Source: an uncultured Deinococcales bacterium
GTDB lineage: Bacteria > Deinococcota > Deinococci > Deinococcales > JAAFIG01
Direction of reading: 5' to 3'
Assembly (NCBI GenBank): GCA_964247135.1
Contig: CAXTTL010000044.1
Location: 1 to 25,562 of the forward strand
DNA: 25,562 nucleotides
The position numbers and the translations under genes were made by a program. The notes under the pieces are model-generated. The model was not told where the DNA came from. It searched no databases and saw nothing but the letters and a program-made list of their open reading frames with translations. Shown piece by piece: positions 5,345 to 24,784 of the stretch; within the stretch, counting starts at the first letter, position 1; every line of letters begins with the position of its first letter.

Positions 5345-5360
5345 CCAGTAAACTCTGTTC

Positions 5361-5978: not shown

Positions 5979-5998
5979 TTCAAAGCCTCGAGTCGGGT

Positions 5999-6034: not shown

Positions 6035-6256
6035 CTTGGCGTTATTAAAGAAGTCTTAATTAGTGGTTGGTTCAATCATTTGAAATGACGCCTAAGAAAC
6101 TCGAGTGGGTTAGAGTTTCGATTCCGATAGGGCAAAAATAGCATTCAAGAATTCGACTAAGTCGTGGAATTTGCCCTGGTGAAACTATTTTGTACTCAAT
6201 CCAAGATAGTTCCAAAAACCGTGAATGATAAAATGAAATTCTCCATTCGTCAAGAC

Positions 6257-6285
6257 TTGCACGATTAATTTATCAATGCTAGAGT
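6257..6285 (+). promoter_or_regulatory. Putative promoter of the lipoprotein gene
   Basis: TTGCAC, 17 bp, TAGAGT with extended -10 TG at 6277-6278. Confidence 0.6.
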
Positions 6286-6335
6286 TTTTGCTCGAGACTC
6301 CCTACCATTTCGAGTCTTACAAAAAAATCACAGGG

Positions 6336-6393
6336 GCTTCTGAAAAGGAAGCTTCTGAAAAGGAAGCTTCTGAAAAGGAAGCTTCTGAAAAGG
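6336..6393 (+). repeat. 15-bp tandem repeat GCTTCTGAAAAGGAA, 3 full copies plus 13 nt
   Basis: Units start at 6336, 6351, 6366 and 6381; the last runs into the AAGGGG RBS. Confidence 0.95.
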
Positions 6394-6401
6394 GGCTGTT
6401 T

Positions 6402-7529
6402 GTGAAGAAAGTATCGTTGTTCTACCGTTTAAGGGCTTTATCGTTATCGGCACTGATTTTGTTTACAAGTTGTGCCACCAATTTACCTCAACCTCCCAAA
6501 AGCGAAAATCCAAACATAGACACACCACAACCCATAGTCACGGCTGATGATCCAACAGCAATCAAGGGTTGGTTTTGGAATCCTTCATGGTGGGAACAAG
6601 ACGGGGCACTTGTACCTGAAGTCGTTGGCACAATCAATGAAAATCCTTGGATTTTGCAAACGGCAGGTCGCGCACGAAATGCAGCTTTAAGAACAACAGC
6701 AACAACCCCTCAGTTTAATTTAGCAAAAGCAAAACAAAAATGGAATGCAGCGACAGGACTTTTGACCGTTCTCGTACCGTTTCAAGATGTTGCATCCCCA
6801 TATTTCGCCACTGTTTTTATCCGTCCTCAATGGAATGCTTGGGGACCGCATACTTGGACTATTGAAGGCGTAGATGTAACTGGAATACTCAAAGTATCGG
6901 GAAACTCAAACATTGCTGTAATGACCGTACAAATTAATTCAGATTCTACTTTTGGTACAGGTTTTATGCAGGTTATTGACCCAGTTGCCAAAAAAACAGT
7001 TTCTAGTTTTGAAACCGAAGGCAACGCATTAGAGACTCAAATTGCATCACTTGCATCACCTACCGTAACTGCTCTCGGCGTTGAGCCTTGTGCTCCCTCT
7101 GGTGTTACGGTTGCTAAGGTAGGTTCAACAGTTCCTACCCCCGTTCCTCCATGTAAAGATAGTACGGTAAATCCACCAAAAAATACTGGTTCAAATACGA
7201 TTGACAGCAACAACACAATCTCTGAAACAAGACCATTACCATTTCCACCTGTCGATGCTTCACAACCAGACTGTGCCGCCCTGTTACAGGCATGGAAAGA
7301 TGCTGACGAAACTAGAAAAAATGCTGACGAAAACTCTCGCTCATACTGGGCAGCATCAGGAGCATTTTGTACCGGTGCTGCTGTGCAAGTAGGGCTAGAC
7401 CCCCTTACCGATGTCGCATGTGGCATTGCTGTTTGGCAGGCTAAAGTTGCTACTGCTCAAATGAATCAAGCTCGAAAAGCTGAAGCTCGAGCAGCAGCAG
7501 CTTATAAGAATGCCAATTGTAAAAAGTAA
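6402..7529 (+). CDS. Lipoprotein with Pro-rich linker and Cys-rich helical C-terminal domain (possible toxin)
   Basis: GTG at 6402 after AAGGGG; signal peptide with FTS-C lipobox; six further Cys in the C-terminal part; AT-rich. Confidence 0.75.
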   Translation: MKKVSLFYRLRALSLSALILFTSCATNLPQPPKSENPNIDTPQPIVTADDPTAIKGWFWNPSWWEQDGALVPEVVGTINENPWILQTAGRARNAALRTTATTPQFNLAKAKQKWNAATGLLTVLVPFQDVASPYFATVFIRPQWNAWGPHTWTIEGVDVTGILKVSGNSNIAVMTVQINSDSTFGTGFMQVIDPVAKKTVSSFETEGNALETQIASLASPTVTALGVEPCAPSGVTVAKVGSTVPTPVPPCKDSTVNPPKNTGSNTIDSNNTISETRPLPFPPVDASQPDCAALLQAWKDADETRKNADENSRSYWAASGAFCTGAAVQVGLDPLTDVACGIAVWQAKVATAQMNQARKAEARAAAAYKNANCKK

Positions 7530-9573: not shown

Positions 9574-9656
9574 AAACTCCCTTCTCTCGATGTTGAGAGA
9601 AGCGCCCCAAGCCCGAAGGTGCTGCCGTAAGGGGCAAGAAGGGTTGGGGATGAGAG
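9574..9656 (+). repeat. REP-like palindrome (host B) interrupted by a 39-bp insertion
   Basis: Removing 9602-9640 restores the perfect stem CCCTTCTCTC-gatgtt-GAGAGAAGGG and gives 41/44 identity to the host at 24705-24784. Confidence 0.9.
9602..9640 (+). mobile_element. Small structured insertion E1
   Basis: GCGCCCCAAGCCCGAAGGTGCTGCCGTAAGGGGCAAGAA; absent at the equivalent position of the 24.7-kb host copy. Confidence 0.75.
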
Positions 9657-9726
9657 CAGAAAAAGCAATTGCTGATTTTGGTATTTGAACAGTAAAAATT
9701 AAAAATAACCACCAAGGAGCAAACCT

Positions 9727-11256
9727 GTGAGCAACCCAACCAGCCAACCAGACCTCGAGATCAGCCTTCACGAACAAACCGTTGCGCGGTTGAACAACGC
9801 CGACGCGATTGTGGCGGCGGGTTTTGAACGCTTTCCGTACAGTTATAACCAAACCCATCATGCCGATCAGTTGCACAAATTACACCCCGCGCCGCTCGAG
9901 CCTGGGCAAGAGTGGCTGGCAGAAAAAGTCGGCGTGGCGGGGCGCGTCATGGCGTGGCGCGACATTGGCAAACTGATTTTTGCCAGTTTGCAAGACGAGA
10001 CTGGACGGATTCAGTTGTTCATGTCCAAAAACGAACTCGAGCATTTTGATGTGGCAAAAAAGATTGACCTGGGCGATATCATCGGGGTTTCGGGGCATCT
10101 CATCACGACCAAATCGGGTGAGTTGTCGATCAAGGCGACCAGTTTCACGCCGCTGGTGAAGTCCTTGCACCCGCTGCCGAGCGATTACTATGGTTTGACG
10201 GATGTTGAAACGCGTTACCGTCAGCGTTATTTGGATTTGATCGTCAATCCAGATTCTCGGGCGGTCTTCAAGGCGCGTTCCAAGACCCTGCGGTTTATCC
10301 GGGATTTTTATGAGGCTCGAGATTTCATGGAGGTCGAAGGTCCGACGCTGCAAGCGATTGCGGGCGGGACTGAAGCCAAACCTTTTAAGACGCATCACAA
10401 TGCGCTGGGTCACACGTTTAACTTGCGGATCGCGCTCGAGCTGCATTTGAAGCGCTTGTTGGTCGGCGGCTTCGAGCGGGTCTATGAAATTGGGCGCGTG
10501 TACCGCAATGAAGGCATTGATCTGACCCACAATCCAGAGTTCACGATGCTCGAGTTGTACTGGGCATACGCGGATTACAGGGATATGGCGAAGATGACCG
10601 AGGATTTGTTCCGTGGGTTGGCGCTTGAGGTGACGGGCGGCACGATGCTGGAGTTTGAGGGTAAAACACTGGATTTTGGAGCGCCGTTCAACGAAATCGA
10701 TTACGTTGAAGGCTTAAAGAAGCACGTGCCCGATTTGGATTTTGACCCGCTCGAGCTTTCAAAACTGCGGGCGTTTTGTGACGCGCGTTACCCGCAGTGG
10801 AAGGGGGTGCCCGATTACAAGTTGCTGGACAAGTTGTTCGGCGAGTACGTCGAACCGCTCTTGGTCAACCCGACGTTTGTCATGAATCACCCACTGGCGA
10901 TCAGCCCGCTGACCAAGCCTCACCGTTCCAAACCCGGTCTGACCGAACGCTTTGAATTGTTCGTGGCTGGTTTTGAGGTCGCCAACGCCTACAGCGAGTT
11001 GAACGATGCCGCCGAACAACGCGCCAGGTTTGAAGCCCAAAGCGCCCGCCGCGACGCTGGCGACGACGAAGCGCACGAGCAAGACGAGGATTTTTTGGTC
11101 TCGCTCGAGTACGGAATGCCGCCCGCCGCTGGCATTGGCATCGGCATTGACCGCCTGGTGATGCTTTTGACCAACCGTGTCAGCATCCGTGACGTGCTGT
11201 TATTTCCACTCTTAAAACCCGAGAAGGTTGCCACCACAAATGAAGGGCTAGCGTAA
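9727..11256 (+). CDS. lysS: Lysyl-tRNA synthetase, class II
   Basis: [50 protein letters not shown] start after AAGGAG. Confidence 0.98.
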
Positions 11257-11268
11257 GATGCAAGCGTT

Positions 11269-11628
11269 GTGATACTCGTTCGGATGACCGACAAAGCCAG
11301 TTGGGAACGAGCCAAAACCTTGGGCGTCTTTCACGGCGAACTCGAGGATCAAGGCTTTGTTCACCTTTTAGAGCCAGATCAAGTCCTGAAAATTGCCAAT
11401 GCTTCTTTTGCTGGACGCGAGGATTTGCTGTTGTTGGTCTTGCACCGTGCCAGGGTTCGCTCGAGTATTTTTGAAGCTGACCTTTACAAGACGGGGGAAT
11501 TGTTCCCTCATATTTTGGGGACGCTCAACCTCGAGGCGGTGATGATGGTGCTTGATTTTCCACCGTCCGACGATGGGACGTTTAAAATGCCAATGCGTTT
11601 GACGATGTTGATGCAAAAATTCTTATGA
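11269..11628 (+). CDS. DUF952 family protein
   Basis: W..A..G.F..LEDQGFVHL..QVLKIAN..ELFPHILGTLNLEAV. Confidence 0.85.
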   Translation: MILVRMTDKASWERAKTLGVFHGELEDQGFVHLLEPDQVLKIANASFAGREDLLLLVLHRARVRSSIFEADLYKTGELFPHILGTLNLEAVMMVLDFPPSDDGTFKMPMRLTMLMQKFL

Positions 11629-11658
11629 GATCAATTGCCATGACGCACCAATATTTTT

Positions 11659-11720
11659 GTAGGGGCGCTGCGACCATGCCCGTAAGGTGCATTTTATGGT
11701 CAAAAAGCTTGCTGCGCCCT
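11659..11720 (+). repeat. GTAG-type REP palindrome (host A) carrying 37-bp insertion E2 (11670-11706)
   Basis: 60/62 identical to 21072-21133; flanks rejoin to a GTAGGGGCGC..GCTTGCTGCGCCCT hairpin. Confidence 0.92.
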
Positions 11721-11737
11721 AAAATTATGGTGCTGCC

Positions 11738-12586
11738 ATGACTGAAACCTCGAGCGGAATCGTTTATCTGGTACCCACACCGATTGGGAACTTGGGCGAC
11801 ATCACGTTGCGGGCACTCGAGGTTCTGAAATCGGTGGATGCCATTGCCTGCGAGGACACACGACACTCGAGAAGGTTACTCACACATTTTGGCATCAACA
11901 AACCCCTCGAGCGTCTGGACGCACACACAATGGGGGCTAGGGCGGCGTATGTGCTGGGCAAATACACGCGTTTGGCGTTCGTCAGCGATGCGGGAACGCC
12001 TGGCTTGTCCGACCCTGGGGCAGAACTGGTGTCGGTGGCGCTCGAGTTGGGGTACAAAATCGAGGCGTTGCCTGGGGCAACCGCGCTCGTGCCAGCGCTG
12101 GTCTTGTCGGGTTTATCCACCGCTCGGTTTACGTATTTCGGGTTTCTGCCGCGCTCTGGGCGCGAACGGCGCGAACGCATTGCCGAGATTGCATCCTCGA
12201 GCATCACCAGCGCGATTTACGAAAGTCCGCACCGTCTGCTCGAAACGCTGACAGATTTGGGTCAAGCTTGCGGGGTCACTCGAGCTTGTGCGGTGGTGCG
12301 GGAACTGACCAAATTGCACGAGGAGGTTTTCAGGGGCAGTCTCGAACAAACGTTTGACCACTTCCAACGGGGGCAGATTCGTGGTGAAATTGTGATTGTT
12401 GTTGCGGGACTCGAACCAAACAATGCAGCTCCAGACCACACCAGCTTTGAAACCAAGGCTTTGGAACTGGCAAAAGATCAGAAAACAGCCAGGGACATTC
12501 GAGAAATACTGCAAAATTTGGGTTTGGACCGCAACAAAGCCTATGAAATCGCGCTCGGGGCAATCTCGAGCATCAAGCAAGAATAA
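11738..12586 (+). CDS. rsmI: 16S rRNA C1402 2'-O-methyltransferase
   Basis: [52 protein letters not shown]. Confidence 0.96.
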
Positions 12587-12629
12587 TTGTTCGAGGGAGA
12601 ATTGTGATGAAACACGATCAGAGGGACGT

Positions 12630-13595
12630 ATGAAACGAATCGGTGTACTCACCTCTGGCGGTGACGCCCCAGGCATGAACGCCGCCATCCGAGCCGTGGT
12701 TCGCACGTCCACGGCGCACGAGCTTGAAGTCATGGGCATCAAACGTGGTTTCGCGGGCATGATCGACGGCGAATTTAGCAAAATGGGTCCTCGAGATGTC
12801 GCCAACACCATTCAACGTGGTGGCACGGTACTGCTGACGGCTCGTTGCAAAGCCTTTTATGAACCCGAAGGTCGCGCCCGAGCGGCGGCACAACTCAAGG
12901 GCGCTGGGATTGAAGGTTTGGTGGTGATCGGCGGTGACGGTTCGTTTCATGGGGCGCATTACCTGTGCCAAGAACACGGCATCAAGGTGATGGGCGTGCC
13001 TGGCACCATTGACAACGACTTGTACGGCACCGATGCGACCATCGGTTACGACACGGCATTGAACACCGCCCTCGCCGCGATTGACCGCATTCGGGACACT
13101 GCCGCCAGCCACGAACGCCTGTTTTTTATTGAGGTCATGGGACGCCACGCCGGTTTTATCGCCCTGAGCGTCGGCATTGCCGGCGGCGCCGAAGAAATTT
13201 TAATTCCCGAACAACCCGAGCACCTCGATCAGGTCATCGAAACCGTGCGCATGAGCGCCTTAAAAGGCAAAGCCTCGAGCATCATCGTGGTGGCTGAAGG
13301 CTTCGAGGGCGGCGGCTTGAAAGTCATGGAAGCCGTCTCCAAAGCCACAGGTCTGGACGCTCGAGCCAGCATTTTGGGGCATGTGCAACGCGGTGGCAGC
13401 CCCACGGCGGCGGATCGTATCCTTGCCTCGAGGCTCGGTTATGCGGCGGTTGAGGCGTTGATTGAAGGCAAAACCGATTTGATGGCGGGTGTGGTCGCCG
13501 ATGAGATTCATTTCACGCCGCTGCATGAAACCTGGGAAAAACGCAAGGATGTCAACCAGAAAATGCGGCAGATGGCGAAGGTTTTGGCATTGTAG
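12630..13595 (+). CDS. pfkA: ATP-dependent 6-phosphofructokinase
   Basis: [46 protein letters not shown]. Confidence 0.98.
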
Positions 13596-13635
13596 GCAGA
13601 TCACCACAACTTTTTCGGTATGATTAAAGCTCGAG

Positions 13636-14811
13636 ATGAAAGATTATGCGCTCCGCAACTCGAGCTTTTTACCCTCAGCCTTTGGCGAGATGACACTTCT
13701 TGCTGCGCAGCACGGGGCGGTCAATCTTGGGCAGGGTTTTCCCGATTTTGCGCCGCCCGATTTTGTGCTCCAAGCCGCCAAGGAAGCTTTCAATGGCAAG
13801 TTGCATCAGTATGCCCCGCCAAGAGGTCACGGGCGGCTTCAAGAGGCTTTGGCGCGAACCCTCGAACCAAGTTTGGGATTTGCCCCAGACCCAACGCTCG
13901 AGGTCACCGTGCATTGCGGCGCAACCCAAGCCCTTCACGCGACCATGCAAGCGTTACTCGAGCCAGGCGATGAGGTGATTGTGCTCGAGCCGCAATTTGA
14001 CACGTACACGCCGCAGGTTTTGTTGGCTGGTGGCGTGCCTATTTACGTGCCGCTTCATCCGCTAGAGACGGGCTGGGAACTTGATTTCTCTGAACTTCGT
14101 GCCGCCTGCTCGAGTCGTACAAAATTGATGCTCTTGAACACGCCGCACAATCCCACGGGCAAGGTTTTTAACCGCGCCGAACTCGAGCAAATTGCCGAGA
14201 TTGCGCTTGAGTTTGATTTTTACGTGATCGCGGATGAAGTCTATGATCGTTTGGTGTACGGCGTGGAGCATGTCTCGATTGCCCGTTTGCCAGGAATGCG
14301 TGACCGCACGATCACGATTGGTTCGGCTGGGAAAATGTTCTCGGTGACGGGTTGGCGCATCGGGTGGACGGTCTCGAGCACTGCCATTGCCAGCGCGATT
14401 CGGGCAGGTTTGCAATGGACGACCTTTGCAGCGGCGACACCAGTTCAAGAAGCCATCGCTTTGTGCCTCGAGCGCATGAAAGACGAAAATTACGAACACG
14501 AATTTCGCTCGAGTTTCCTGAAAAAACGTAACTTTTTAGCCGCCGCGCTCGAGGGTGCAGGTTTTAAAGTTTGGCAACCCGAAGGCGCGTATTACATTGT
14601 TGCCGATGCCTCGAGATTTACGCATGACGCGAACGCTTTTTCAAAACGTCTGGTCACCGAATTTCAACTTGCCGCCATGCCGATGAGCGTGTTCTATTCG
14701 GCTGGCACCCGAGAAACCGCCATTGCTGGTTTTCGGTTTGCGTTTTGCAAATCCGAAGAAACCCTGGCTCGAGCTGCCGAAAAACTCGAGTTGTTGCGCA
14801 GCAGTCATTGA
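13636..14811 (+). CDS. Class I/II PLP aminotransferase (YbdL/kynurenine-glutamine transaminase-like)
   Basis: NLGQGFPDF, NTPHNPTGKV, DEVYD, SAGKMFSVTGWRIG, RFAFCK. Confidence 0.92.
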   Translation: MKDYALRNSSFLPSAFGEMTLLAAQHGAVNLGQGFPDFAPPDFVLQAAKEAFNGKLHQYAPPRGHGRLQEALARTLEPSLGFAPDPTLEVTVHCGATQALHATMQALLEPGDEVIVLEPQFDTYTPQVLLAGGVPIYVPLHPLETGWELDFSELRAACSSRTKLMLLNTPHNPTGKVFNRAELEQIAEIALEFDFYVIADEVYDRLVYGVEHVSIARLPGMRDRTITIGSAGKMFSVTGWRIGWTVSSTAIASAIRAGLQWTTFAAATPVQEAIALCLERMKDENYEHEFRSSFLKKRNFLAAALEGAGFKVWQPEGAYYIVADASRFTHDANAFSKRLVTEFQLAAMPMSVFYSAGTRETAIAGFRFAFCKSEETLARAAEKLELLRSSH

Positions 14812-14862
14812 TTCTGAAGGTTGTCTCACGATAAAAACATCAAGTTTTGTTGATATTGGGTT

Positions 14863-15102
14863 ATGTATTCCGATATTCTGCCGCCCTGGGTTCAATTTCC
14901 CGACAAACCGCCGTGGTGGGCTGGTTGGCGCGAAGGCAACAGTGAATTGTGGCTGCATGAAGCCTGGTTCCCGTTCTGGTATGCCATGTCACGCCTCGAA
15001 CAATTGCAGTATTTGGCATCTCGGCGCGTTCCCGACGATTGGATTGACCATGTGCTCGAGTTTTGGGTGCACGATGAACTTGACCCGAACCTGCCAAAAT
15101 GA
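14863..15102 (+). CDS. Small Trp/Pro-rich hypothetical protein (79 aa)
   Basis: Fills the intergenic gap in the same orientation as its neighbours; PPW..P..PW..GWREG..E.W pattern. Confidence 0.6.
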   Translation: MYSDILPPWVQFPDKPPWWAGWREGNSELWLHEAWFPFWYAMSRLEQLQYLASRRVPDDWIDHVLEFWVHDELDPNLPK

Positions 15103-15147
15103 TATGAATAAGTATGCACTCGAGTGAATAAAGCTCGAGCATTCACA
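15080..15147 (+). promoter_or_regulatory. Putative argG promoter with ARG boxes (ArgR operator)
   Basis: TTGACC, 17 bp, TATGAA; box TATGAATAAGTATGCACT (15103-15120) fits the TGAAT-N4-ATTCA consensus; a second half-site TGAAT starts at 15125. Confidence 0.7.
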
Positions 15148-15151
15148 AACC

Positions 15152-15178
15152 ATGACCATCAACCGACGACCAGCCTAA
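15152..15178 (+). CDS. Candidate leader peptide MTINRRPA
   Basis: ATG ACC ATC AAC CGA CGA CCA GCC TAA in the argG leader; no clear SD. Confidence 0.45.
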
Positions 15179-15258
15179 ACTCGAGCGCCCAAATCTGGGA
15201 TGGCTCGAGCTTGTCGCTGGCGGTTTATGCTGTCTGCAAGAATCGGAGGAATATTAAA

Positions 15259-16461
15259 ATGTCTGACAAGAAAAAAGTGGTACTCGCCTACAGCGGTGGC
15301 TTGGACACCAGCATGATCTTAAAGTGGCTTCAACTCGAGCGCGATTACGAAGTCGTGTGCTTCACCGCCGACATCGGGCAGGGCGAAGAGGTCGAGGAGG
15401 CTCGAGTCAAAGCCCTCAACACGGGCGCAGTTGCCGCTTACGCCCTGGATTTACGCGAAGAATTCGTGCGCGATTTTGTCTTCCCGATGCAACGATCCTC
15501 GAGCTTGTACGAAGGGTATTACCTGCTCGGCACAAGCATCGCTCGACCGCTGATTGCCAAGCATCTTGTCGAGATCGCCTTCAAAGAAAACGCCGAAGCC
15601 ATCTCACACGGCGCGACCGGCAAAGGCAACGACCAAGTACGTTTTGAAATCAGCGCCTACGCCTTAAACCCAGAAATCAAAATCATTGCCCCCTGGCGCG
15701 AATGGGGACAAAGTGGGCGCAAAGAACTGATGGAATTTGCCGCCAAACACAACATTCCCGTTCCAGTAAGCGCCGCCAAACCCTACAGCGTAGACTCGAA
15801 CTTGTTGCACAACAGCTTTGAAGGCGGAATTCTCGAGGACCCGTGGGCTGAGCCGCCAACTGGCATGTTCAAACTGACCAAGTACATTGAAGACACCCCA
15901 AACACTCCCGAATACGTCGAAATCGAATTTGTCGCAGGCGATCCTGTCGCCATCAACGGCGAGAAATTAAGTCCAGCCGCACTGCTCGAGAAAGCCAACC
16001 AAATCGCGGGCAATCACGGCATTGGCGTGGTGGATTTGGTCGAGAATCGTTTTGTCGGCATGAAGTCCAGAGGGGTTTACGAAACTCCAGGCGGCACGCT
16101 CTTGTACCACGCCCGTCGCGCCGTCGAAAGCATCACGCTCGACCGCGAAGTGCTGCACACTCGAGACAGTATGCAAGCCAAATACGCCGAATTGGTTTAC
16201 AACGGTTTTTGGTTTACCGCTGAACGCGAATCCATGCAAGTTTATTTTGACCATGTGGCAAAAAGCACCACAGGCATTGCCCGCATGAAAATGTTCAAAG
16301 GTCAAGCGTTGGTGGTTGGACGCAAATCCCCGATCAGCCTGTACGACCCGACGCTGGTCACGTTTGAGAAAGAAACCGTCTACGACCAAGCCGATGCTGG
16401 CGGGTTTATCAAACTGAACGCCCTTCGTGCTCGAGTTCGCGCGAGGTTGCAAAAGGATTGA
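15259..16461 (+). CDS. argG: Argininosuccinate synthase
   Basis: [50 protein letters not shown] before ATG 15259. Confidence 0.98.
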
Positions 16462-16516
16462 ATTCGGCTGTGAAATGATAGTTGATGCTCGAGTTTAGGC
16501 AGGTTGCAAAAGGATT
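16428..16516 (+). repeat. Imperfect direct duplication of the argG 3' end
   Basis: TGCTCGAGTT-cgcgcg-AGGTTGCAAAAGGATT (16428-16459) versus TGCTCGAGTT-taggc-AGGTTGCAAAAGGATT (16486-16516). Confidence 0.88.
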
Positions 16517-16549
16517 AAGAGCATCTACAATAAGCAAAAGAGGTGAATT

Positions 16550-16798
16550 ATGACACTCGAGATTAGTGAAAACACCATGCGAATGCTTGAAGCTGAAGCA
16601 GCCCGCCAGCACACCAAACCAGAAGTTTTGGCAGATGAATTCATCCAAATTGGAATCACCAAATCTCTGGAAAATTCAAAAGGCTTCAGCGCCTTTTTAG
16701 GGCTATGGTCAAACGCCGAAGCAGAAGAATTTAAACAAGCCATAGCTCCACTTTCCAGTGTGGATGAGGAGTTATGGCGTGAAAAAAATCTTGATTGA
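16550..16798 (+). CDS. vapB: Probable antitoxin (VapB-like)
   Basis: 82 aa; RHH-like N-terminus and acidic tail GLWSNAEAEEF..VDEELW; overlaps a PIN-domain gene. Confidence 0.75.
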   Translation: MTLEISENTMRMLEAEAARQHTKPEVLADEFIQIGITKSLENSKGFSAFLGLWSNAEAEEFKQAIAPLSSVDEELWREKNLD

Positions 16799-17174
16799 CA
16801 CAAATGCTTACTCCGAGCTGATAGAAGGCAACGTCAAAATTCAGGTTATTCTCGATGCCCACAGCGTTTGCATACCCCTGATCGTTATTGCAGAACTCAG
16901 GGCAGGATTTCAATACGGTTCAAGACAACAAAAGAACGAGCAAATTCTCAAAGCCTTTCTCGAGAAAGCTGAAGTGATCGCACCAAATTTAGAAACCACT
17001 ACCGAATACGCAAAGATTTATGCAGCGTTGCGTAAGGCTGGAAATCCAATACCAACCAATGACATTTGGATTGCAGCCATTGGCAAACAGTATGACCTGC
17101 CGCTTCTGACGTTGGATTCTCACTTTCGGTTTATCGATGGACTTGTGGTTGTGAATCCTCTCGAGAATTCGTAA
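16779..17174 (+). CDS. vapC: PIN-domain toxin
   Basis: ILIDTN, AELRAG, PIPTNDIWIAA, LLTLDSHF; GTG at 16779 after GAGGAG. Confidence 0.93.
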   Translation: MKKILIDTNAYSELIEGNVKIQVILDAHSVCIPLIVIAELRAGFQYGSRQQKNEQILKAFLEKAEVIAPNLETTTEYAKIYAALRKAGNPIPTNDIWIAAIGKQYDLPLLTLDSHFRFIDGLVVVNPLENS

Positions 17175-17196
17175 ACAATACTTTAGTGAAAGCAAA

Positions 17197-17751
17197 ATGA
17201 TTATGCCCAAGAAGAAAGTCATTTCAATGCTCGAGTTTTTACGAACAGGAATGTTTGGTGGATTGTCTGTTGGTGCCGATATTTCTAATTTACTCCCTCT
17301 TTTTGGCGAACCAACCTACATCAAAGATTACAGGGACTTTACAGCAAAATGGGCTTACGAAGACATGGAATTTTATGTAAATCTCGAGCTGCAAAAAGTT
17401 TACGGGATTATTATTAATGGTTTTCAAAACAGCGATGACCTAGGACGTTTCCCACGCGAAAACAAAGAATTTAAGATAGACCCCTGGGTTCTGCGTTGGG
17501 AATCAGGTTTATTGAACACAAAGAATGCTTTAGATTCAGTAAATTTGGAGTTTCTACAAATCCCTAACGCACCAAGCGAAGGTTATGAAACTTTTCGACT
17601 CAAATCGGGAACACAAATTATTTTTGCCGAAGAACCAGTTTGGGTAGATGGAAAACAAGTTTGGACTGAAAATCCAAGAATCGTTATTGATGCAATTATC
17701 AACACCAGTAGTGAACTGGCTAAAACTTCGTCTGATTTTCAATATTCATGA
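17197..17751 (+). CDS. Hypothetical protein (184 aa), AT-rich
   Basis: Long ORF closely packed in the operon; no motif recognised. Confidence 0.75.
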   Translation: MIMPKKKVISMLEFLRTGMFGGLSVGADISNLLPLFGEPTYIKDYRDFTAKWAYEDMEFYVNLELQKVYGIIINGFQNSDDLGRFPRENKEFKIDPWVLRWESGLLNTKNALDSVNLEFLQIPNAPSEGYETFRLKSGTQIIFAEEPVWVDGKQVWTENPRIVIDAIINTSSELAKTSSDFQYS

Positions 17752-17763
17752 AAGTTTATATCC

Positions 17764-18177
17764 GTGAATCTATCAAAACCTCAATTCTTTTTTGATCTCG
17801 AGCGTCCAACCATCGTGTGCTTGTGCGGTTCAACACGGTTTTATGATGTGTTTTCAATATTGAATCTCGAGGAAACCTTAGCTGGAAAAATCGTGCTTTC
17901 CATTGCGTCAGACCGTCAAACCGAAGACGAAATTTTTGCGACCATGAACGAACTTGAACTCGAGCAAGTCAAACAAAAACTCGAGAAACTGCATTACCAA
18001 AAAATTGATTTGGCAGACGAAATTCTGGTGGTGAACGTGAACGGTTATGTGGGTGAAAGTACCACTCGAGAAATTTTGTACGCTCGAGAAACCAAGAAAA
18101 CCGTTCGTTGGCTCGAGCCTGAAAATATACCCAATTGGTTTGACCTCAACTCTCGAGAGGAGCAAGTACGTGGTTGA
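17764..18177 (+). CDS. Nucleoside 2-deoxyribosyltransferase-like / DUF4406-like protein
   Basis: IVCLCGSTRF..LHYQKIDLADEILVVNVNGYVGESTTREILYA. Confidence 0.7.
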   Translation: MNLSKPQFFFDLERPTIVCLCGSTRFYDVFSILNLEETLAGKIVLSIASDRQTEDEIFATMNELELEQVKQKLEKLHYQKIDLADEILVVNVNGYVGESTTREILYARETKKTVRWLEPENIPNWFDLNSREEQVRG

Positions 18178-18682
18178 TTCATTTGCCCATTGTGGATACT
18201 GCGGGACAGCCTTCGCACCCGATCAGCCCGTTCACACTCGAGTCTGCTCGGGTTGTGGGCGCACCAGTTACCGCAACCCCACGCCCGTCGCGGTCACACT
18301 CGTCCCCGTTGCGCTCGAGACTGGAAGTGAAGGCTTGTTGGTGATTCGGCGCAGCATTCCACCCAAAGAAGGACAACTTGCTTTGCCTGGTGGTTTTATC
18401 AGTTACGGCGAATCCTGGCAAGTGGGCGCTGTTCGAGAAGTTTTTGAAGAAACAGGTTTGCAACTCGAGGCGGAATCAATTCGTTTGGCAAGTGTTTTAA
18501 GCGCTCCTGACAGCACCATTCTGATTTTTGGAATTGCGCCAGTTCAAGCTTCAAACGTGCTCGAGGGTTTGAGCATCTCGAGTGAAACGTCCGAGGTGGC
18601 GGTTTTAAAATCCTTTGCAGCTTTGGCTTTTCCGCTGCACACAAAAGTTGCTCAAGAATTTTTTGCTGGAACACTTCGTTAA
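18170..18682 (+). CDS. Zinc-ribbon NUDIX hydrolase
   Basis: CGYCG..CSGCG..YRNP and Nudix box GGFISYGESWQVGAVREVFEETGL; GTG 18170 after GAGGAG. Confidence 0.92.
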   Translation: MVDSFAHCGYCGTAFAPDQPVHTRVCSGCGRTSYRNPTPVAVTLVPVALETGSEGLLVIRRSIPPKEGQLALPGGFISYGESWQVGAVREVFEETGLQLEAESIRLASVLSAPDSTILIFGIAPVQASNVLEGLSISSETSEVAVLKSFAALAFPLHTKVAQEFFAGTLR

Positions 18683-18708
18683 GCTCGAGTTTAGGCATTG
18701 CAAAGGAT
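18683..18708 (+). repeat. Third degenerate copy of the argG 3'-end repeat
   Basis: GCTCGAGTTTAGGCA identical to 16487-16501 (15/15), followed by TTGCAAAGGAT. Confidence 0.8.
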
Positions 18709-18713
18709 GAAAC

Positions 18714-19166
18714 ATGAAAACACATTTAAAGGAAATAATTTCACGGGTCACGCCTTATCTTGAGGCTTTGACAAATGAAGCTGTTTCTTTCAAGTCAGAC
18801 CCGAATGTGTGGTCAGGCAAAGAAATCCTTGGTCATTTGATTGATTCTGCCATGCACAACCACGAACGTTTTGTTGGCTTGGGAACAGGTGAAAAGCTCG
18901 AGTTTCCTGGCGATAATCAAGATTCATGGGTGAGTTTTCAACATTGGCAGGAACGCGATTGGCTCGAGATTGTGGGTTTATGGAAATCCTACAACCTTCA
19001 TCTCGCTTGGCTGATTGAACACCTGCCAGATGATGTACTCGAGCGGAAAGCCATTGTTTTTCTCAGTCGAAAGACCATAACTTTAGGTTGGTTGATCAAA
19101 CATTATCTCGAGCACCTCGAGCATCACTTAAAACAAATTGATGAGCGCGTCAGAGGAATATCATGA
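18714..19166 (+). CDS. DinB/YfiT family protein
   Basis: WSGKEILGHLIDSA..QDSWV..HYLEHLEHHLKQI. Confidence 0.9.
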   Translation: MKTHLKEIISRVTPYLEALTNEAVSFKSDPNVWSGKEILGHLIDSAMHNHERFVGLGTGEKLEFPGDNQDSWVSFQHWQERDWLEIVGLWKSYNLHLAWLIEHLPDDVLERKAIVFLSRKTITLGWLIKHYLEHLEHHLKQIDERVRGIS

Positions 19167-19693
19167 TTCCAGAACTTCGCACCGCCACACTCAAGGATGC
19201 AGCCTTGATTGCGCGACTCACACGTGATTGTTGGGTTGGAAAACCCGCAAACTCGAGCGGGCATACCGAATCGGTTGAAGCGGTGGAAAAAAGTTTGCGT
19301 GAAGGCACTGCGATCATCATGTTTCTCGAGGGCAAACCTGTCGGCAGCGTGAGGTATTACCCTGTCATGGGCGAAAGCACGTCGGAAGTCACGTATTACG
19401 GCGCAATCGCTTGGGAAATCGGGCGGCTTGGCATTCTCCCCGCGTACCGTGGGCGAGGGCTTTCAACCTGGCTGATGAACGAAATCATGATTCGCGCCAC
19501 CTCGAGCGGCATCGAAGAATTGCGGCTTGCGGTGCGAACCGACGAACCTGGCTTGCTCGGGTTTTACAAGCGTCAAGGGTTTTTTGAAGACTCGAGCATC
19601 CGTTATTCACACGCGAATCCGAACAGTCCAAAACCCATTTCAATGCGAAAATATTTGTTTCAACACCGTCCAACTCGAGGAGATTTTGCATGA
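19163..19693 (+). CDS. GNAT family N-acetyltransferase
   Basis: EIGRLGILPAYRGRGLS, GFYKRQGF; ATGA overlaps on both sides. Confidence 0.9.
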   Translation: MIPELRTATLKDAALIARLTRDCWVGKPANSSGHTESVEAVEKSLREGTAIIMFLEGKPVGSVRYYPVMGESTSEVTYYGAIAWEIGRLGILPAYRGRGLSTWLMNEIMIRATSSGIEELRLAVRTDEPGLLGFYKRQGFFEDSSIRYSHANPNSPKPISMRKYLFQHRPTRGDFA

Positions 19694-21075
19694 GCAATAA
19701 AAAACCGTGGGGTGGACGTTTTGAAGCCCCGACTGACAAACTCGTTGAAGCGTTTAACGCCAGCGTAGATTTCGATAAACGCCTGGTGCTCGAAGATATT
19801 GCGGGCAGCAAAGCGCACGTCACAATGCTGGGTGCAACTGGGATTCTCGAGGATTCAGAGGTCACGCAGATTCTGGGCGGTTTGGATTCGGTTTTGAAAG
19901 AAGTCGAATCTGATGTGTTCCCGTGGCGCACCGAACTCGAGGATGTTCACATGAACGTCGAAACGCGCTTGAAAGAATTGATTGGGGCTGTGGCTGGAAA
20001 ACTGCACACGGCTCGCAGCCGCAACGATCAGGTGGCGCTCGATTTTCGGCTTTGGGTGAAAAAAGCGTGTCTTCGCATGGCACACAAACTCGAGGTGTTG
20101 CGTGAGGTGATGCTTTCGGAGGCAGAACGAAATTTTGGCACGATCATGCCTGGTTACACACACTTGCAAGTCGCGCAACCGATTTTGCTCTCGCATTGGT
20201 TTATGGCGTATTTCGAGATGTTCAACCGCGACATCTCGAGGTTTTATGACGCGGCAAATCGCATGAATGAAAGCCCGCTCGGGGCTGGCGCACTGGCAGG
20301 AACGCCCTGGCAGATTGATCGTTTTGCCACCGCAAAAGAATTGGGGTTTGCCGCGCCGACCCGCAACAGTTTGGACAGCGTGGGTGCTCGAGATTTCGCG
20401 CTCGAGTTTTTGAGTGCCGCCAGCATTTGCATGGCGACCCTCTCCCGAATTTCTGAGGAATTGATTCTCTACTCGAGCTTCGAGTTTGGTTTTGTGATCC
20501 TGCCCGATTCGCACACCACAGGCTCGAGCATCATGCCGCAAAAGAAAAATCCTGATGTTTCAGAACTTGCCAGGGGCAAAGCGGGACGTGTCTTTGGTGA
20601 TTTGATGGCACTCTTGACCGTGGTGAAGGGTACGCCACTGGCTTACAACAAAGATTTTCAGGAAGACAAAGAACCCGTTTTTGATGCCGCCGACACGCTC
20701 GAGGTTATCTTGCAACTTTATGCAGAGATGCTGCCCAAATGCGCGTGGCAAACCGAGACCACCAAAATGGCTGCCGCTCGAGGGTACAGCACTGCCACCG
20801 ACTTGGCAGATTACTTGGCGCGTCAAGGTCTGCCGTTTCGTGACGCGCACGAAGTTGTTGGTAAACTTGTTGGCTTGTGCGTGAACACCAAACGTCAACT
20901 TTGGGAATTAACCACCGCAGAACTCGAGAATGCCCATCCGAAACTGTCACTGTCCGCACTCGAGGTTGTGACTGTGGAATCCAGCGTCAACGCCCGAACG
21001 AGTTACGGCGGTACAGCCCCAGTCCGTGTCAAAGAAGCCATTGAAGCCGCCCGAAAATCCATTCAAAACCCGTAG
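19690..21075 (+). CDS. argH: Argininosuccinate lyase
   Basis: WGGRF, HTARSRNDQ, MPGYTHLQ, GSSIMPQKKNPD, YNKDFQEDKE. Confidence 0.98.
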   Translation: MSNKKPWGGRFEAPTDKLVEAFNASVDFDKRLVLEDIAGSKAHVTMLGATGILEDSEVTQILGGLDSVLKEVESDVFPWRTELEDVHMNVETRLKELIGAVAGKLHTARSRNDQVALDFRLWVKKACLRMAHKLEVLREVMLSEAERNFGTIMPGYTHLQVAQPILLSHWFMAYFEMFNRDISRFYDAANRMNESPLGAGALAGTPWQIDRFATAKELGFAAPTRNSLDSVGARDFALEFLSAASICMATLSRISEELILYSSFEFGFVILPDSHTTGSSIMPQKKNPDVSELARGKAGRVFGDLMALLTVVKGTPLAYNKDFQEDKEPVFDAADTLEVILQLYAEMLPKCAWQTETTKMAAARGYSTATDLADYLARQGLPFRDAHEVVGKLVGLCVNTKRQLWELTTAELENAHPKLSLSALEVVTVESSVNARTSYGGTAPVRVKEAIEAARKSIQNP

Positions 21076-21133
21076 GGGCGCTGCGACCATGCCCGTTAGG
21101 TGCATTTTATGGTCAAGAAGCTTGCTGCGCCCT
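21072..21133 (+). repeat. GTAG-type REP (host A) carrying 37-bp insertion E3 (21083-21119)
   Basis: 60/62 identical to 11659-11720; its GTAG supplies the argH TAG stop. Confidence 0.92.
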
Positions 21134-21163
21134 GCCTTTTCGTACCCAAAGGAGGAAACCCCA

Positions 21164-21751
21164 ATGCCCAACGCCCCTCTTGATCCTAAAACGCACCTTC
21201 GGGCAGGATCGCTCGAGTCTCAACTTGTCACCCCAATCCCAGAACTCGCCCCTGCCGCGCCGCTCGAGCTTCGTGCGGCAACGCTCGAGGACATCCCGAG
21301 ACTGTATGACCTGATCAAGTATTGGGCGGAGCGTGGTCGGATGCTCGAGCGCAGTCCTGAGCTTCTGGCGAGTACAATTCACGGGTTTTTGTTGCTCGAG
21401 GATCAAAACCGTGAACTGGCGGGTGTGGTGGGTTTGCATCGCATGGCTGAGGATTTGGCGGAGGTTCGCGGTTTGGCGGTTGCGCCGAATTATCAGGGCA
21501 AGGGTTTGGGGCGTTGGTTGGTGCTGGGCGCGGAAAGATTGGCTCGAGATTGGGGTTTGAAGCGCTTGTTCGCTTGGACGTATGAGCAACGCTTTTTTGA
21601 ACGTTGCGGGTACACCAGAATCCCCCGTGAGGAGGCGACCTTGCCGCAAGAAATTTACGGCGAGTGTCAGCGTTGTCCGTTTTTAACCAATTGCAAAGAA
21701 ATTCCGATGTTAAAGTTGATTGACTTGCCCAAGCCTGTCGTCGCGTCCTAG
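21164..21751 (+). CDS. argA: Short GNAT-type N-acetylglutamate synthase
   Basis: WAERGRMLERS, LAEVRGLAV..QGKGLG, LFAWTYE..FF, ECQRCP..CKE; follows argH; AAGGAGG RBS. Confidence 0.8.
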   Translation: MPNAPLDPKTHLRAGSLESQLVTPIPELAPAAPLELRAATLEDIPRLYDLIKYWAERGRMLERSPELLASTIHGFLLLEDQNRELAGVVGLHRMAEDLAEVRGLAVAPNYQGKGLGRWLVLGAERLARDWGLKRLFAWTYEQRFFERCGYTRIPREEATLPQEIYGECQRCPFLTNCKEIPMLKLIDLPKPVVAS

Positions 21752-21820
21752 TTTCTCGAGCATTGTGAACCTTGGATTTACAAAGAGAATTTGGGTTGCA
21801 TTTTCAAAAATAGTTGTGCT

Positions 21821-21848
21821 GTAGGGGCTAGGCGTGCCTAGCCCCTAC
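21821..21848. repeat. Uninterrupted GTAG-type REP palindrome
   Basis: GTAGGGGCTAGGC-gt-GCCTAGCCCCTAC, perfect 13-bp arms. Confidence 0.85.
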
Positions 21849-22026
21849 ATTGGATTGCGTTCAGATTGCAGACGATTTTTGGGTTTCTTTTTTTGATTGC
21901 ATTCGTCTGAAACTGTTCTGCACAATACCGTTTGGTTTTGTGGTGTGATTTTCTGCCATCCATTTCAGGCTCGAGGTGCGATACTAAAACTCGATTTTCA
22001 AACTCTTCTTGAAGGCTCGAGGTTTT

Positions 22027-23694
22027 ATGGTGACGCGCTCGATTGCTGTGCTGACTCTATTGCTTTTAACGGCTTGTGGCTCGAGTCCTACGCCTGAACC
22101 TTTGGTGGACTTGGGCGACCCAACGGCGGTTTCGCAGACAGCTTTAAACTTGTGGCGCAAGCAGCAGGTCAAAGGCTCTTGCAGCGGTTGTCACGGCGCA
22201 GATTTTTATGATCTGGCACGGATTGGGTCTTCGGATTTTACGATTCACCGTCGGGCGACGAACGACGGCGCGACAGAAAACGAAGCCAAAGCCTTGGTGC
22301 AAGCGGTTCATAACACCCGAGAAAAATTTCAGTTACCTGCCGAAAATCCGCTCGAGTTTAGACCGTTTCAGCCTTCTGCTGCGCCACTTCCTGGGAGCAC
22401 CCCTGTTGAACGGGACATTGCGCTCGGGCATCAACTCGAGACGCTGACACCAACTTTGATGGGTGCTCCGGTGGATTCGCTCGAGAAAGCCAAAAGTGCG
22501 TGTTCTGAAATGCTGGCAATCAATTTGCGTTCCATGCCGACGGGGATTGTCTATCCGCGTTGGTCGAGCGATGCGTTTAACGGGTCTGAAATGGCAACCA
22601 TGAACGATTGGGTCTCCGACATTGCACGTGAACCGATTCCCGAAAAACGCCTCGAGTGGCAAGCGTTGCAAAGTGCCTACCTCGAGAATCCGTCGGATCA
22701 GAATTTTTGGCGCATGTACGCGGCGGTGGACAGCATGACACAACCGTTTGCGGTAACGGTGGGTGCAGACGCGATCAATTTTACGAATCAAAAATTTAAG
22801 GCGGCATTGATCGGACAGCATTTGTTACGCCAAGAAAAAGTGGCAAACTCGAGTTTTATGCAGGGAAAATTGGCGTTCTCGTACCTCGAGAAACCCGAGT
22901 GGCAAAGCATCATCAAGACCTCAGAATTTTTGCCTGGCAACAATTTGTGGGAGGTTGGCGACAACGCCCGCACGGTGTTGGGCAATCACAACAACCTGGC
23001 TGGCGTCGATGTCAGCAATGCGCGAAAAGTGCTCGAGGCGAGAGGTTTTCCAAAGTTTGCGGTGGACAGTGTAAACGCTGATCGCTCGAGTTTTGTCCAC
23101 GAGGAAGAAGTGCGGCTGGCGTGGTTTTGGATTGGTTTTACGGTTGATCCCAGTTTTGCGCGGGTTTCTGGCAGCAACAGCACCAAGGTTGGCGAGTACA
23201 TGATCGCGAGTTTACTCAACGTCAACATGCACCTACACGATTCGTTTTTTACCAACATGCGGCTTTGCGCCAAAGGTCTATTGCCCGAGGGGAACTATAA
23301 AAGCACGCCCGCGTTTAAACCCGATTACGGTTATTTTGTGGGTTATGGGCGCGAAATCCTCAAATGGAATTGGAGCAAGGGCGACCCAATCATTCCCGAT
23401 GCTCAAAAACTCGAGCAGCAGAACTTGTGGCACAGGTTTACAGGCAATGGTTTTCGCATGAGTTTATACCTGAACTTGGACACGCTCGAGCATCTGGACG
23501 CGGCTGGGCTTGCCAAAGAACGCGCTTGGGTGCTGGGCGGCGACGGTTTGTACGGCATTAATCCTGCCACGGGCAAATCCGATGACCGTGCGCCGTGGAA
23601 TGCCATGCAAAATCATTTCGCCACTTACGAACCCGAAAACGCCACGGCAGACACGGCATTGATTGCCAAAGTCATGACAAAATTAAGCTTGTAG
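22027..23694 (+). CDS. Lipoprotein with a single CxxCH haem-binding motif and a large uncharacterised domain
   Basis: ATG 22027; LTA-C lipobox; GSCSGCHG. Confidence 0.8.
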   Translation: MVTRSIAVLTLLLLTACGSSPTPEPLVDLGDPTAVSQTALNLWRKQQVKGSCSGCHGADFYDLARIGSSDFTIHRRATNDGATENEAKALVQAVHNTREKFQLPAENPLEFRPFQPSAAPLPGSTPVERDIALGHQLETLTPTLMGAPVDSLEKAKSACSEMLAINLRSMPTGIVYPRWSSDAFNGSEMATMNDWVSDIAREPIPEKRLEWQALQSAYLENPSDQNFWRMYAAVDSMTQPFAVTVGADAINFTNQKFKAALIGQHLLRQEKVANSSFMQGKLAFSYLEKPEWQSIIKTSEFLPGNNLWEVGDNARTVLGNHNNLAGVDVSNARKVLEARGFPKFAVDSVNADRSSFVHEEEVRLAWFWIGFTVDPSFARVSGSNSTKVGEYMIASLLNVNMHLHDSFFTNMRLCAKGLLPEGNYKSTPAFKPDYGYFVGYGREILKWNWSKGDPIIPDAQKLEQQNLWHRFTGNGFRMSLYLNLDTLEHLDAAGLAKERAWVLGGDGLYGINPATGKSDDRAPWNAMQNHFATYEPENATADTALIAKVMTKLSL

Positions 23695-23696
23695 AT

Positions 23697-24047
23697 TTAA
23701 GCTGGCTCGAGTTCGGGCTTTAATGCTGGTTTCCAATGCACCCGCGCCCAGGAGTCAATTGCGCCCACAACGGTCTGAAGCTCGTATCCCGCGCACGTCA
23801 GTTTGTAACTGGTGCGCGGCGGCATGGTGCTGTGCACGGTTTTACTAACAATCCCTTCGCGCTCGAGCATCTCGAGGCGCTCTGAGAGGGTGCTGGGGTT
23901 GCAGTTGCCGACATCCCGTCGGATTTCGTTGAAGCCTTTGCTGCCATCCAAAAGTGTACGGACAATATATAAAACCCATTTCTCTTGCAAAAAAGAGATG
24001 GCTGCTACGGCTGGACAGGGTGTTTCGACCTCGTTCACGGTTTGCAT
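23697..24047 (-). CDS. HxlR/DUF24 winged-helix regulator (start may be GTG at 24038)
   Basis: CP..EKWVLYIVRTL..FNEIRR..TLSERLEMLE..PPRTSYKLT. Confidence 0.92.
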   Translation of the reverse strand: MQTVNEVETPCPAVAAISFLQEKWVLYIVRTLLDGSKGFNEIRRDVGNCNPSTLSERLEMLEREGIVSKTVHSTMPPRTSYKLTCAGYELQTVVGAIDSWARVHWKPALKPELEPA

Positions 24048-24138
24048 TTTAACACAACTTGGTATTTTCGTTTACATTCTAAATTACTATGGAATATATA
24101 CTACTATTGTTCGGGATCACCCAACAGGAGGAATACCT

Positions 24139-24681
24139 ATGAGCCAAACTTGGAACATTGACGCCAGCCACACCAGCCTCGACTTCGCGGTAAAACACAT
24201 GGCAATCTCTACCGTGCGCGGGCATTTCAAGGCACTCTCGGGAACAGTCACCACCAACGATTCTGGTGCCCTCGAGAGCATCGAAGCCACCATCGACGCC
24301 AGCACCATCGACACCAAAGACGCCCAACGCGACGGACACCTCAAGAGCCCAGATTTTTTTGATGTTGCCAGCCACCCCAACATCACCTTCAAAAGCACCA
24401 GTGTTCAAGCCAAAGGCGGCAACGAATACAGTGTCACCGGCGACCTGAGTATGCACGGCATCACCAAACCCGTGACGCTGGCGGTTGAAACTGCCACGCC
24501 AATCAAAGACCCTTGGGGCATGACCCGCACCGCCGCCAGCGGCACCGCCAAAATCTCGCGCAAAGAATGGGATTTGACCTGGAATCAGGTGCTCGAGCTG
24601 GGCGCGTTGTTGGTCGGCGATGAAATCAAAATCACGCTCGAGGTTGAAGCGGTGATCCCGCCAGCCGCACCAGCCGCGTAA
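24139..24681 (+). CDS. YceI family polyisoprenoid-binding protein
   Basis: WNIDASHTSLDFAVKHM..VRGHF, RDGHLKSPDFFD, GDLSMHGITKPV; AGGAGG RBS. Confidence 0.95.
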   Translation: MSQTWNIDASHTSLDFAVKHMAISTVRGHFKALSGTVTTNDSGALESIEATIDASTIDTKDAQRDGHLKSPDFFDVASHPNITFKSTSVQAKGGNEYSVTGDLSMHGITKPVTLAVETATPIKDPWGMTRTAASGTAKISRKEWDLTWNQVLELGALLVGDEIKITLEVEAVIPPAAPAA

Positions 24682-24704
24682 AGTCAGCAACTGCTCGGTC
24701 TACC

Positions 24705-24784
24705 CTCTCTTGACCATAAAACGCACCTGGCGGGCATGGTCGCTCATCCCCAACCCTTCTCCCAACATCAGGAGAAGGGAGTTT
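24705..24784 (-). repeat. REP-like palindrome (host B) carrying 36-bp insertion E4 (24708-24743)
   Basis: Minus strand AAACTCCCTTCTCCTGATGTTGGGAGAAGGGTTGGGGATGA[GCGACCATGCCCGCCAGGTGCGTTTTATGGTCAAGA]GAG. Confidence 0.9.

Follow-up and report, generated by a model that had tools for sequence, protein, structure and literature searches.

A family of very small structured repeats was found in the genome of an uncultured Deinococcales bacterium, and these repeats very probably form a non-autonomous mobile DNA family, which is recognised by its hairpin anatomy, by an AG insertion rule and by a preference for hairpin loops. The stretch analysed is a contig piece of 25,562 nucleotides (contig CAXTTL010000044.1 of assembly GCA_964247135.1; hereafter the window), in which a preliminary description had noted four related inserts within palindromic repeats and had proposed a non-coding, structure-defined element mobilised in trans. 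The element, of 36-41 nt, is called the mini in this text; its copies in the window are named E1 to E5, and the source genome, whose assembly has 5.09 Mb in 386 contigs and is 84% complete, is named G000.

A covariance model was built from 95 distinct mini copies and was run over the window with filters off, giving exactly five strong matches of 42.9-54.8 bits, the next best match having 13.5 bits. The four inserts of the preliminary description are present in the sequence where it had placed them, and its count has to be raised to five because E5 had been missed. E1 (9602-9641, + strand, 54.8 bits) has the arm CCCCAA and the loop GAA and occupies site 1 (GAGAAG^GG) of a host repeat at 9574-9656 (+ strand), which reads CTCCCTTCTCTC-GATGTT-GAGAGAAGGGTTGGGGATGAG and belongs to a repeat family separate from the minis. 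E4 (24705-24743, - strand, 42.9 bits), with the arm ACCAT, the loop GCCA and the tail CAAGAG, occupies site 2 (GGGGATGAG^) of the second copy of this host repeat at 24705-24784 (- strand). E2 (11670-11707, + strand, 46.5 bits) has the arm ACCAT, the loop GTAA and the tail CAAAAAG and lies in the loop of a GTAG-type repetitive extragenic palindrome (REP) at 11659-11722; E3 (21083-21120, + strand, 54.2 bits), with the arm ACCAT and the loop GTTA, lies in a REP of the same type at 21072-21135. E5 (21176-21212, - strand, 46.6 bits), with the arm ATCCT and the loop GAA, adjoins a CTCGAG hexamer and lies inside the open reading frame (ORF) of a GNAT acetyltransferase (21164-21751, + strand), just 3' of codon 3, where it adds 36 nt, that is 12 codons in frame. 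Several details given earlier were confirmed: the two host-repeat copies are 41/44 identical once the inserts are taken out and carry them at sites 13 nt apart, the excision of E1 restores a perfect 10-bp stem (CCCTTCTCTC/GAGAGAAGGG), E2 and E3 do sit within a GTAG-type REP, of which an empty copy stands directly after a RAYT (REP-associated tyrosine transposase) gene on contig C136, and the boundaries of the inserts are ambiguous by 1-5 nt.

The mobility of the minis is seen in orthologous loci, which were aligned across five congeneric genomes, and for each of the five window copies an empty orthologous site was found in at least one congener. The site of E1 is filled by the same subfamily in G000 and G003, filled by a different subfamily in G002 and empty in G001, and in G005 the whole host repeat is absent. 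The site of E2 is filled in G000, G001 and G002 (in the last with the REP inverted), the REP is empty in G005, and the host is missing in G003. E3 is present in G000 only; in G001 and G003 its REP is empty and reads GTAGGGGCGCTGCT(T/C)GCTGCGCCCTG, which shows an exact insertion of 37 nt whose boundary is ambiguous by 2 nt. E4 is filled in G000, the host repeat is empty at this site in G003 and missing in G001 and G005; E5 is filled in G000, G002 and G003 and empty in G001 and G005. The earlier proposal that the element is mobile is thus borne out by empty sites for all five copies and by different subfamilies at one site across species.

Empty and filled alleles also coexist within G000 for every host repeat family. 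Of about 111 cores of the host repeat, 65 carry no mini, site 1 is occupied in 26 and site 2 in 5; for one REP type 7 filled copies stand beside 45 that are exact and empty, and for another 18 stand beside about 116 empty ones. With so many empty copies of every host repeat, the inserts are not constant parts of one long repeat, the outcome which the preliminary description had said would overturn it. The same counts bear on the explanation that the inserts do not move by themselves but belong as fixed modules to longer composite repeats, which would be propagated whole or through gene conversion. Repeats do make up many of the hosts, and E2 and E3 share a 62-nt REP-plus-insert unit which is 97% identical, so that short-patch conversion between REPs could mimic the insertion of E3, a point which has to be set against our interpretation of that locus. 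Against fixed modules stand the abundance of empty copies, the REP of E3 which was already there and empty in two congeners, the occurrence of the mini in at least 8 unrelated contexts as well as in a coding gene and an insertion sequence (IS), and the orthologous site that holds different subfamilies. This explanation is largely refuted by the empty alleles and the subfamily switch, and it is given hardly any credence here.

The minis are also inserted into each other. By an iterative parse 141 clean copies were obtained in G000, of which 27 are nested in the loops of other minis and 27 stand head-to-tail in tandem, and when the inner copy is cut out, 14 outer sequences become canonical minis. 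In loci of other species (79 loci, 455 kb) 123 copies were found, with 23 nested, 21 in tandem and nesting up to three deep. One partial internal duplication of a mini was observed on contig C6. Sequencing runs were searched as well, the best listed run holding at most 0.06 of the sampled words and no run of RNA being listed. Contigs from four runs (likeness 85) show a 39-nt skip of E1, in one contig per run and with sides of only 21-28 nt, as well as variants in loop length and, in a loop like that of E3, a nested copy; since the hosts are repeats, none of these observations is attributable to the window locus.

The consensus mini consists of (G)CG, an arm of 5-6 nt, GCCCG, 1-3 variable letters followed by A, GGTGC, a YTT-rich spacer, the complementary arm and CAAGAAG. 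It forms an imperfect hairpin, in which the outer stem of 5-6 bp differs by subfamily yet remains complementary, the inner stem (N)GCCC/GG(T)GC(N') is conserved with a bulged T and encloses the loop G(N)NA, the spacer on the 3' side is unpaired, and the ends (G)CG... and ...CAAGAAG are conserved. In predicted folds the bulged letter is the T of GGTGC. Covariation was analysed in 64 distinct copies of the longer type, where 87.4% of cells pair, compared with 73.1% in shuffles and 27-43% with slid partners; both sides have changed in 6 of 11 pairs (87 cells), and the observed score was reached in 0 of 500 shuffles. The pair adjoining the conserved inner stem is seen as A-T, G-C and T-A, and the short type of mini is without both letters; one subfamily retains a tandem G.A/A.G mismatch. 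The element is therefore structure-defined, as had been suggested, by the pairing excess and the pairs changed on both sides. Single copies folded as DNA have -3.9 to -5.9 kcal/mol, which is marginal stability.

In G000 the subfamily with the ACCAT arm has 55 copies with 12 loop variants, including length variants, and one of two right halves is found in 47 of the 55; the 1-3 loop letters before the conserved A are hypervariable and the remainder is almost invariant (window examples of these letters are 11683-11685, 21096-21098 and 24728-24730). An element of 36-41 nt cannot encode a protein and would be mobilised in trans, which agrees with what had been supposed. An autonomous version bearing cargo was looked for by pairing left and right halves at distances up to 6 kb and was rejected, since the 122 pairs comprised 98 simple copies and about 20 nested ones, and the sole distant pair (3,925 nt) is probably two separate copies and not a cargo-bearing mini. 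When orphan half-elements were scanned for, most matches were noise, and no class of halves turned out to be abundant.

The sites of insertion follow a simple rule. Among 83 sites in G000 that are neither nested nor tandem, CG is preceded by G in 80, and one position further upstream stands A in 56; in other species this further position holds A at 70 of 79 sites (the G of those sites is in part dictated by the search pattern); the tail CAAGAAG is found in 109 of the 141 copies. An inserted mini thus reads AG-CG...CAAGA-AG, and on the other strand it appears as a bulged hairpin between two CT dinucleotides. The mini loop (GNNAG^GTGC) and the mini end (AAGAAG^) both fit this AG rule, which accounts for the nesting and for the tandem arrays. 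Three GTAG-type REP families, the two host-repeat sites, several other hairpin repeats, an IS and coding sequence serve as hosts. The idea that palindromic repeats are targeted is largely upheld by the 141 copies, of which 22 lie in the host repeat and 25 in other hairpin loops, in addition to the nested and tandem ones; exclusive targeting is contradicted by E5 in its GNAT gene. A scan for in-gene copies by ORFs spanning a mini gave mostly stop-to-stop artefacts, and E5 alone was compared with orthologues. The hexamer CTCGAG directly precedes 2 of the 83 insertion sites.

Two observations belong to the hosts themselves. The host repeat has the form CCCTTCTCYC-loop-GRGAGAAGGGTYGGGGATGAG and at orthologous loci some congeners have it and others do not, which points to a second mobile or unstable repeat family; in G003 a different IS110-type gene directly adjoins one copy of it. 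On contigs C14 (about 6900-6980) and C65 (about 20540-20580) minis, one of them a cluster of nested and tandem copies, interrupt a reading frame at the same place in both, and this frame looks, by a protein motif, like that of an IS3-type transposase.

An enzyme-free origin by copying, in which replication template switching at AAG microhomology would take the hairpin unit from another locus, is consistent with the 3-5 nt of microhomology (AGAAG) at many sites, with the tandem arrays and with the partial internal duplication on contig C6. Insertions into one REP type, however, share just 1-2 nt, precise full-length copies number hundreds, and the hairpin covariation together with the conserved unpaired spacer points to recognition by a protein; this origin is accordingly regarded as highly unlikely.

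It is also conceivable that the mini is kept mainly for a function in the cell, for example as a terminator, a protein-binding site or another structured signal in RNA or DNA, and that its spread is secondary. About 30 positions are near-invariant in each subfamily and two loop letters are saturated (the 12 variants in 55 copies), which fits purifying selection on each copy. Intergenic minis are found in convergent regions more than in divergent ones (20 and 9). On the other side, no orientation bias relative to neighbouring genes was seen (23 sense, 20 antisense), no Rfam match was found in the window at gathering thresholds, copies occur within genes and within each other, and presence differs among close species. 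A cellular role as the main reason for the family is held to be improbable.

The minis are restricted to one family of Deinococcales. In G000 the core pattern has 158 matches and its reversed control 0, which is well beyond chance; it is matched in all 18 other genomes of the family (five genera, 1-318 matches each), and in 22 genomes of four sister families it has 0-3 matches, about the level of the reversed control. With the covariance model the mini was found in G000 and in 18 of the 18 other family genomes, and in 0 of 42 genomes outside the family (four sister families). A pattern scan with one genome per species covered the longer subfamilies alone (six letters between GCG and GCCCG), and among the matches listed all those with complementary arms were in records titled uncultured Deinococcales or Deinococcota. 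About 30 of the listed matches are without complementary arms and look like products of chance or of coding sequence, 21 of them in other named taxa and 9 with the title not shown. The assignment to Deinococcota, guessed earlier, was thus right, and the literature search, like the preliminary description, found no report of such an element in this phylum. No IS end or group II intron matching the mini was found either, the window having no Rfam match, so the reading of the inserts as remnants of a known element, which had been named as a way in which the proposal could fail, is not supported.

A particular insertion sequence is closely tied to the mini loop. G000 has a single IS110-family transposase gene (NF033542, 197 bits), which lies within a 1.2-kb IS on contig C51 (locus L143, about 1827-3016), and the mini whose loop this IS interrupts is itself seated in a REP. 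Its ends read CT|TGTAAGTT...ACACGGCTG|CT, and its insertion point is the AG/CT of the mini loop where nested minis also sit. Other loci of this IS (L145-L155, L162-L177) were found in eight other genomes. In the full copies, from 8 genomes, the reverse complement of a mini left half lies downstream in 8/8 and the right half upstream in 6/8, and of the remaining two upstream flanks one is at a contig end and one retains only ...AGCACC; 15 of 16 further IS end junctions are in a mini as well, and the 16th has a 1-nt deletion. A segment in the 5' non-coding region of the IS is reverse-complementary to the flank in 8/8 copies, down to the variable loop letters, and such complementarity is predicted for the right target guide by the bridge-RNA model of IS621, as described in PMC11208160. 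With the IS always in the mini loop and a guide-like segment that matches the flank, the minis are a dedicated landing pad of this IS110-type IS. The relation is also seen the other way round: a mini, of two subfamilies, is found at one CT inside the predicted donor-binding loop in 6 of 8 IS copies (1936-1975, - strand, in L143, and at the same place in L145, L146, L148, L153 and L155), and L147 and L149 are empty there. The IS is specific to the family, being found in 9 of 19 family genomes and in 0 of 22 outside.

From these observations it may be asked whether the IS110 bridge-RNA recombinase moves the minis, as its clients or very short non-autonomous derivatives, by conservative recombination at a CT (=AG) core. 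The IS sits at the same AG/CT as nested minis with its guide-like segment matching in all eight copies, the minis bear the core dinucleotide of the IS on both sides, a mini lies inside the predicted donor-binding loop in most IS copies, and the movement in trans of a unit of left end, cargo and right end is reported for ISPpu10 (bioRxiv 10.64898/2026.03.19.712850). The mini ends, however, agree with the donor ends of the IS in only 4/7 and 2/7 letters as compared by eye, the targets of the minis share nothing beyond AG whereas IS621 needs nine matched positions according to PMC11208160, a double-stranded circle or synapse of 37 bp is hard to picture, the arms vary between subfamilies, a conserved hairpin of two helices is not required by the model, and the IS was found in only 9 of the 19 family genomes. 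Mobilisation by this recombinase is considered unlikely. Among the candidates for a co-distributed enzyme named in the preliminary description, an IS110-type recombinase was thus found and is seated in mini loops.

A more far-reaching picture, put forward as speculation and likewise judged unlikely, would take the minis as the smallest known transposable DNA with dedicated machinery. The hairpin would then play two parts: it would be acted on by a single-strand or RNA-guided recombination system not yet recognised, and it would serve a co-evolving IS110 element as its obligatory pad. A mini within the donor-binding loop would redirect the enzyme towards the movement of minis, and an arms race between pad and IS would have left its trace in the two hypervariable loop letters.

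For the movement of the minis, a mechanism on single-stranded DNA by a HUH/Y1 enzyme acting in trans is offered tentatively as the leading candidate, with a chance somewhat short of even. The mini would move as single-stranded hairpin DNA, it would be cut and rejoined at the flanking CT dinucleotides, and the enzyme in trans would be a HUH/Y1 transposase of the RAYT/IS200 kind. Such an enzyme fits best because, according to PMC8266576, the CT at which RAYT cleaves single-stranded DNA may lie either 5' or 3' of a bulged REP hairpin. G000 has two intact RAYT genes, at 45006-45608 (- strand) on contig C1 and at 1883-2440 (- strand) on contig C136 (both NF047646, with scores of 196.8 and 82.8 bits), one RAYT remnant and one IS200 transposase gene (contig C249). 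Both intact RAYT genes are flanked by their own GTAG-type REPs, which are the REP families whose loops host minis, and one of them adjoins the empty copy of the REP type that hosts E2 and E3.

Several results weigh against this enzymatic step. No mini was found within about 1.5 kb of any of the 4 Y1 loci, and the alignment of minis is without the GTAG guide which RAYTs need. RAYT genes were found in 11 of 18 and IS200 genes in 12 of 18 family genomes, the assemblies being incomplete; G012, which is 94% complete and has 107 pattern matches, has neither RAYT nor IS200, and the single-contig genome G011 with 8-12 mini copies has three RAYT and three IS200 genes. Single copies are no more stable than shuffles (z from +0.72 to -2.11), and the orientation of the minis shows no clear tie to local GC skew, 60 of 101 loci being on the G-rich strand (p=0.07), although GC skew is a weak proxy in an assembly of 386 contigs. 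The co-distributed RAYT or HUH transposase for which the preliminary description had suggested a search was thus not obtained, neither RAYT nor IS200 being linked to or co-distributed with minis. No TnpB gene (PF07282) was found in G000. A reverse transcriptase, the third candidate named there, was rejected as mobiliser, since the sole one is of retron type, lies beside a tRNA and shows no likeness to the mini. This gene (contig C4, locus L142, 7607-9235, + strand) has a protease-like C-terminal part, adjoins a tRNA-like sequence and is probably a defence retron. That the mover is an enzyme or process not yet recognised is given about an even chance.

By their description the minis may be filed as very small mobile repeats, for which the nearest known kind is the small dispersed repeats (SDRs) of Nostocaceae cyanobacteria, the comparison already drawn in the preliminary description. 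The SDRs were reportedly defined by Elhai et al. in 2008 (Genome Res 18:1484) as eight families of 21-27 nt, compared with 36-41 nt for the minis, and the two are compared by description and not by sequence, no likeness in sequence being known. The likeness is one of behaviour and not of descent: both are very small, non-coding, dispersed and inferred to be mobile, insert precisely with filled and empty sites, are restricted to one lineage, and occur in genomes with a hyperabundant palindrome, which is HIP1 (highly iterated palindrome) there and CTCGAG here. The SDRs are treated in PMC4390886, PMC5861425 and PMC3116915, and according to PMC4390886 SDR5 enters the HIP1 palindrome between its third and fourth letters. 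The minis differ in belonging to another phylum and in having as their target mainly hairpin loops and the mini itself, not the palindrome; in PMC5861425 it is stated that no SDR-like repeat was found outside the Nostocaceae.

The minis also resemble REPs and their doublets (REPINs) in being imperfect palindromes of 20-40 nt with a bulged hairpin and hundreds of mostly extragenic copies, in having CT beside the hairpin on one strand, at the position where RAYT cuts (PMC8266576), and in sharing a genome with RAYT genes and three GTAG-type REP families. According to PMC3733652 and PMC8266576, REPs are recognised by a conserved tetranucleotide, GTAG or CGTC, which terminates the palindrome on one side. 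The minis, in contrast, are without either tag and have the invariant ends GCG and CAAGA(A)G, they flank no RAYT gene (those on C1 and C136 have GTAG REPs as their neighbours), and they occur nested or in direct tandem rather than as inverted doublets and are inserted into REPs. With IS110/IS1111 elements such as IS621 and ISPpu10 the minis have in common a CT core on both sides and a structured repeat as landing site (PMC11208160; bioRxiv 10.64898/2026.03.19.712850), and they differ from them in having no gene or bridge RNA, in ends unlike the donor ends of the IS and in diverse targets. A classical miniature inverted-repeat transposable element was rejected, because the termini GCG.../...CAAGAAG are not inverted repeats, the arms are subterminal and the number of letters shared at the junctions is not fixed (1-5 nt).

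The small non-coding repeats (SNRs) of Deinococcus radiodurans belong to the same phylum and share with the minis a mosaic composition, but are longer. As reported in PMC1978522, D. radiodurans carries 295 of them, of at least 9 types, and D. geothermalis has none. The minis are not such mosaic repeats as far as the pattern and model searches show, as both find nothing in the Deinococcus-sized genomes of the sister families.

The window is otherwise an ordinary piece of chromosome with genes for a copper ATPase, an aldehyde dehydrogenase, ribosomal protein L19 and a class II tRNA synthetase, and further with argG, argH, the GNAT acetyltransferase and a YceI protein. Within an ORF that has no Pfam match (6276-7529), about 3.5 units of a 15-nt repeat (GCTTCTGAAAAGGAA) stand at 6336-6408.

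The genomes that carry minis have a further peculiarity. In G000 the palindrome CTCGAG occurs 33,925 times in 5.09 Mb, compared with about 1,370 expected (a window example is 21211-21216, beside E5), and it has 12,000-35,000 copies in all 19 family genomes and 128-7,001 in sister families. Its mirror GAGCTC is absent from G000, has 0-25 copies in 15 of the 19 family genomes and 62-3,684 in sister families. This excess resembles that of the cyanobacterial HIP1 and suggests a bias of restriction-modification or repair.

To our knowledge, mobile DNA below 50 nt is almost undocumented, and the mini is among the smallest mobile DNA elements seen, with hundreds of copies across the family genomes. 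According to the papers that cite them, the SDRs have been the only comparable case, without a mechanism since 2008 and thought to be confined to one lineage, and the minis provide a second, independent case of very small mobile repeats. The question of mechanism becomes testable here, as hundreds of copies in 19 genomes are available together with subfamilies, filled and empty sites, nesting and a simple junction rule. The mini is also a natural landing site of an IS110 bridge recombinase, with a guide segment that tracks the variable loop, and this bears on how such enzymes choose safe targets. The cyanobacteria-like palindrome in the same genomes gives a hint that tiny repeats and iterated palindromes may share genome biology.

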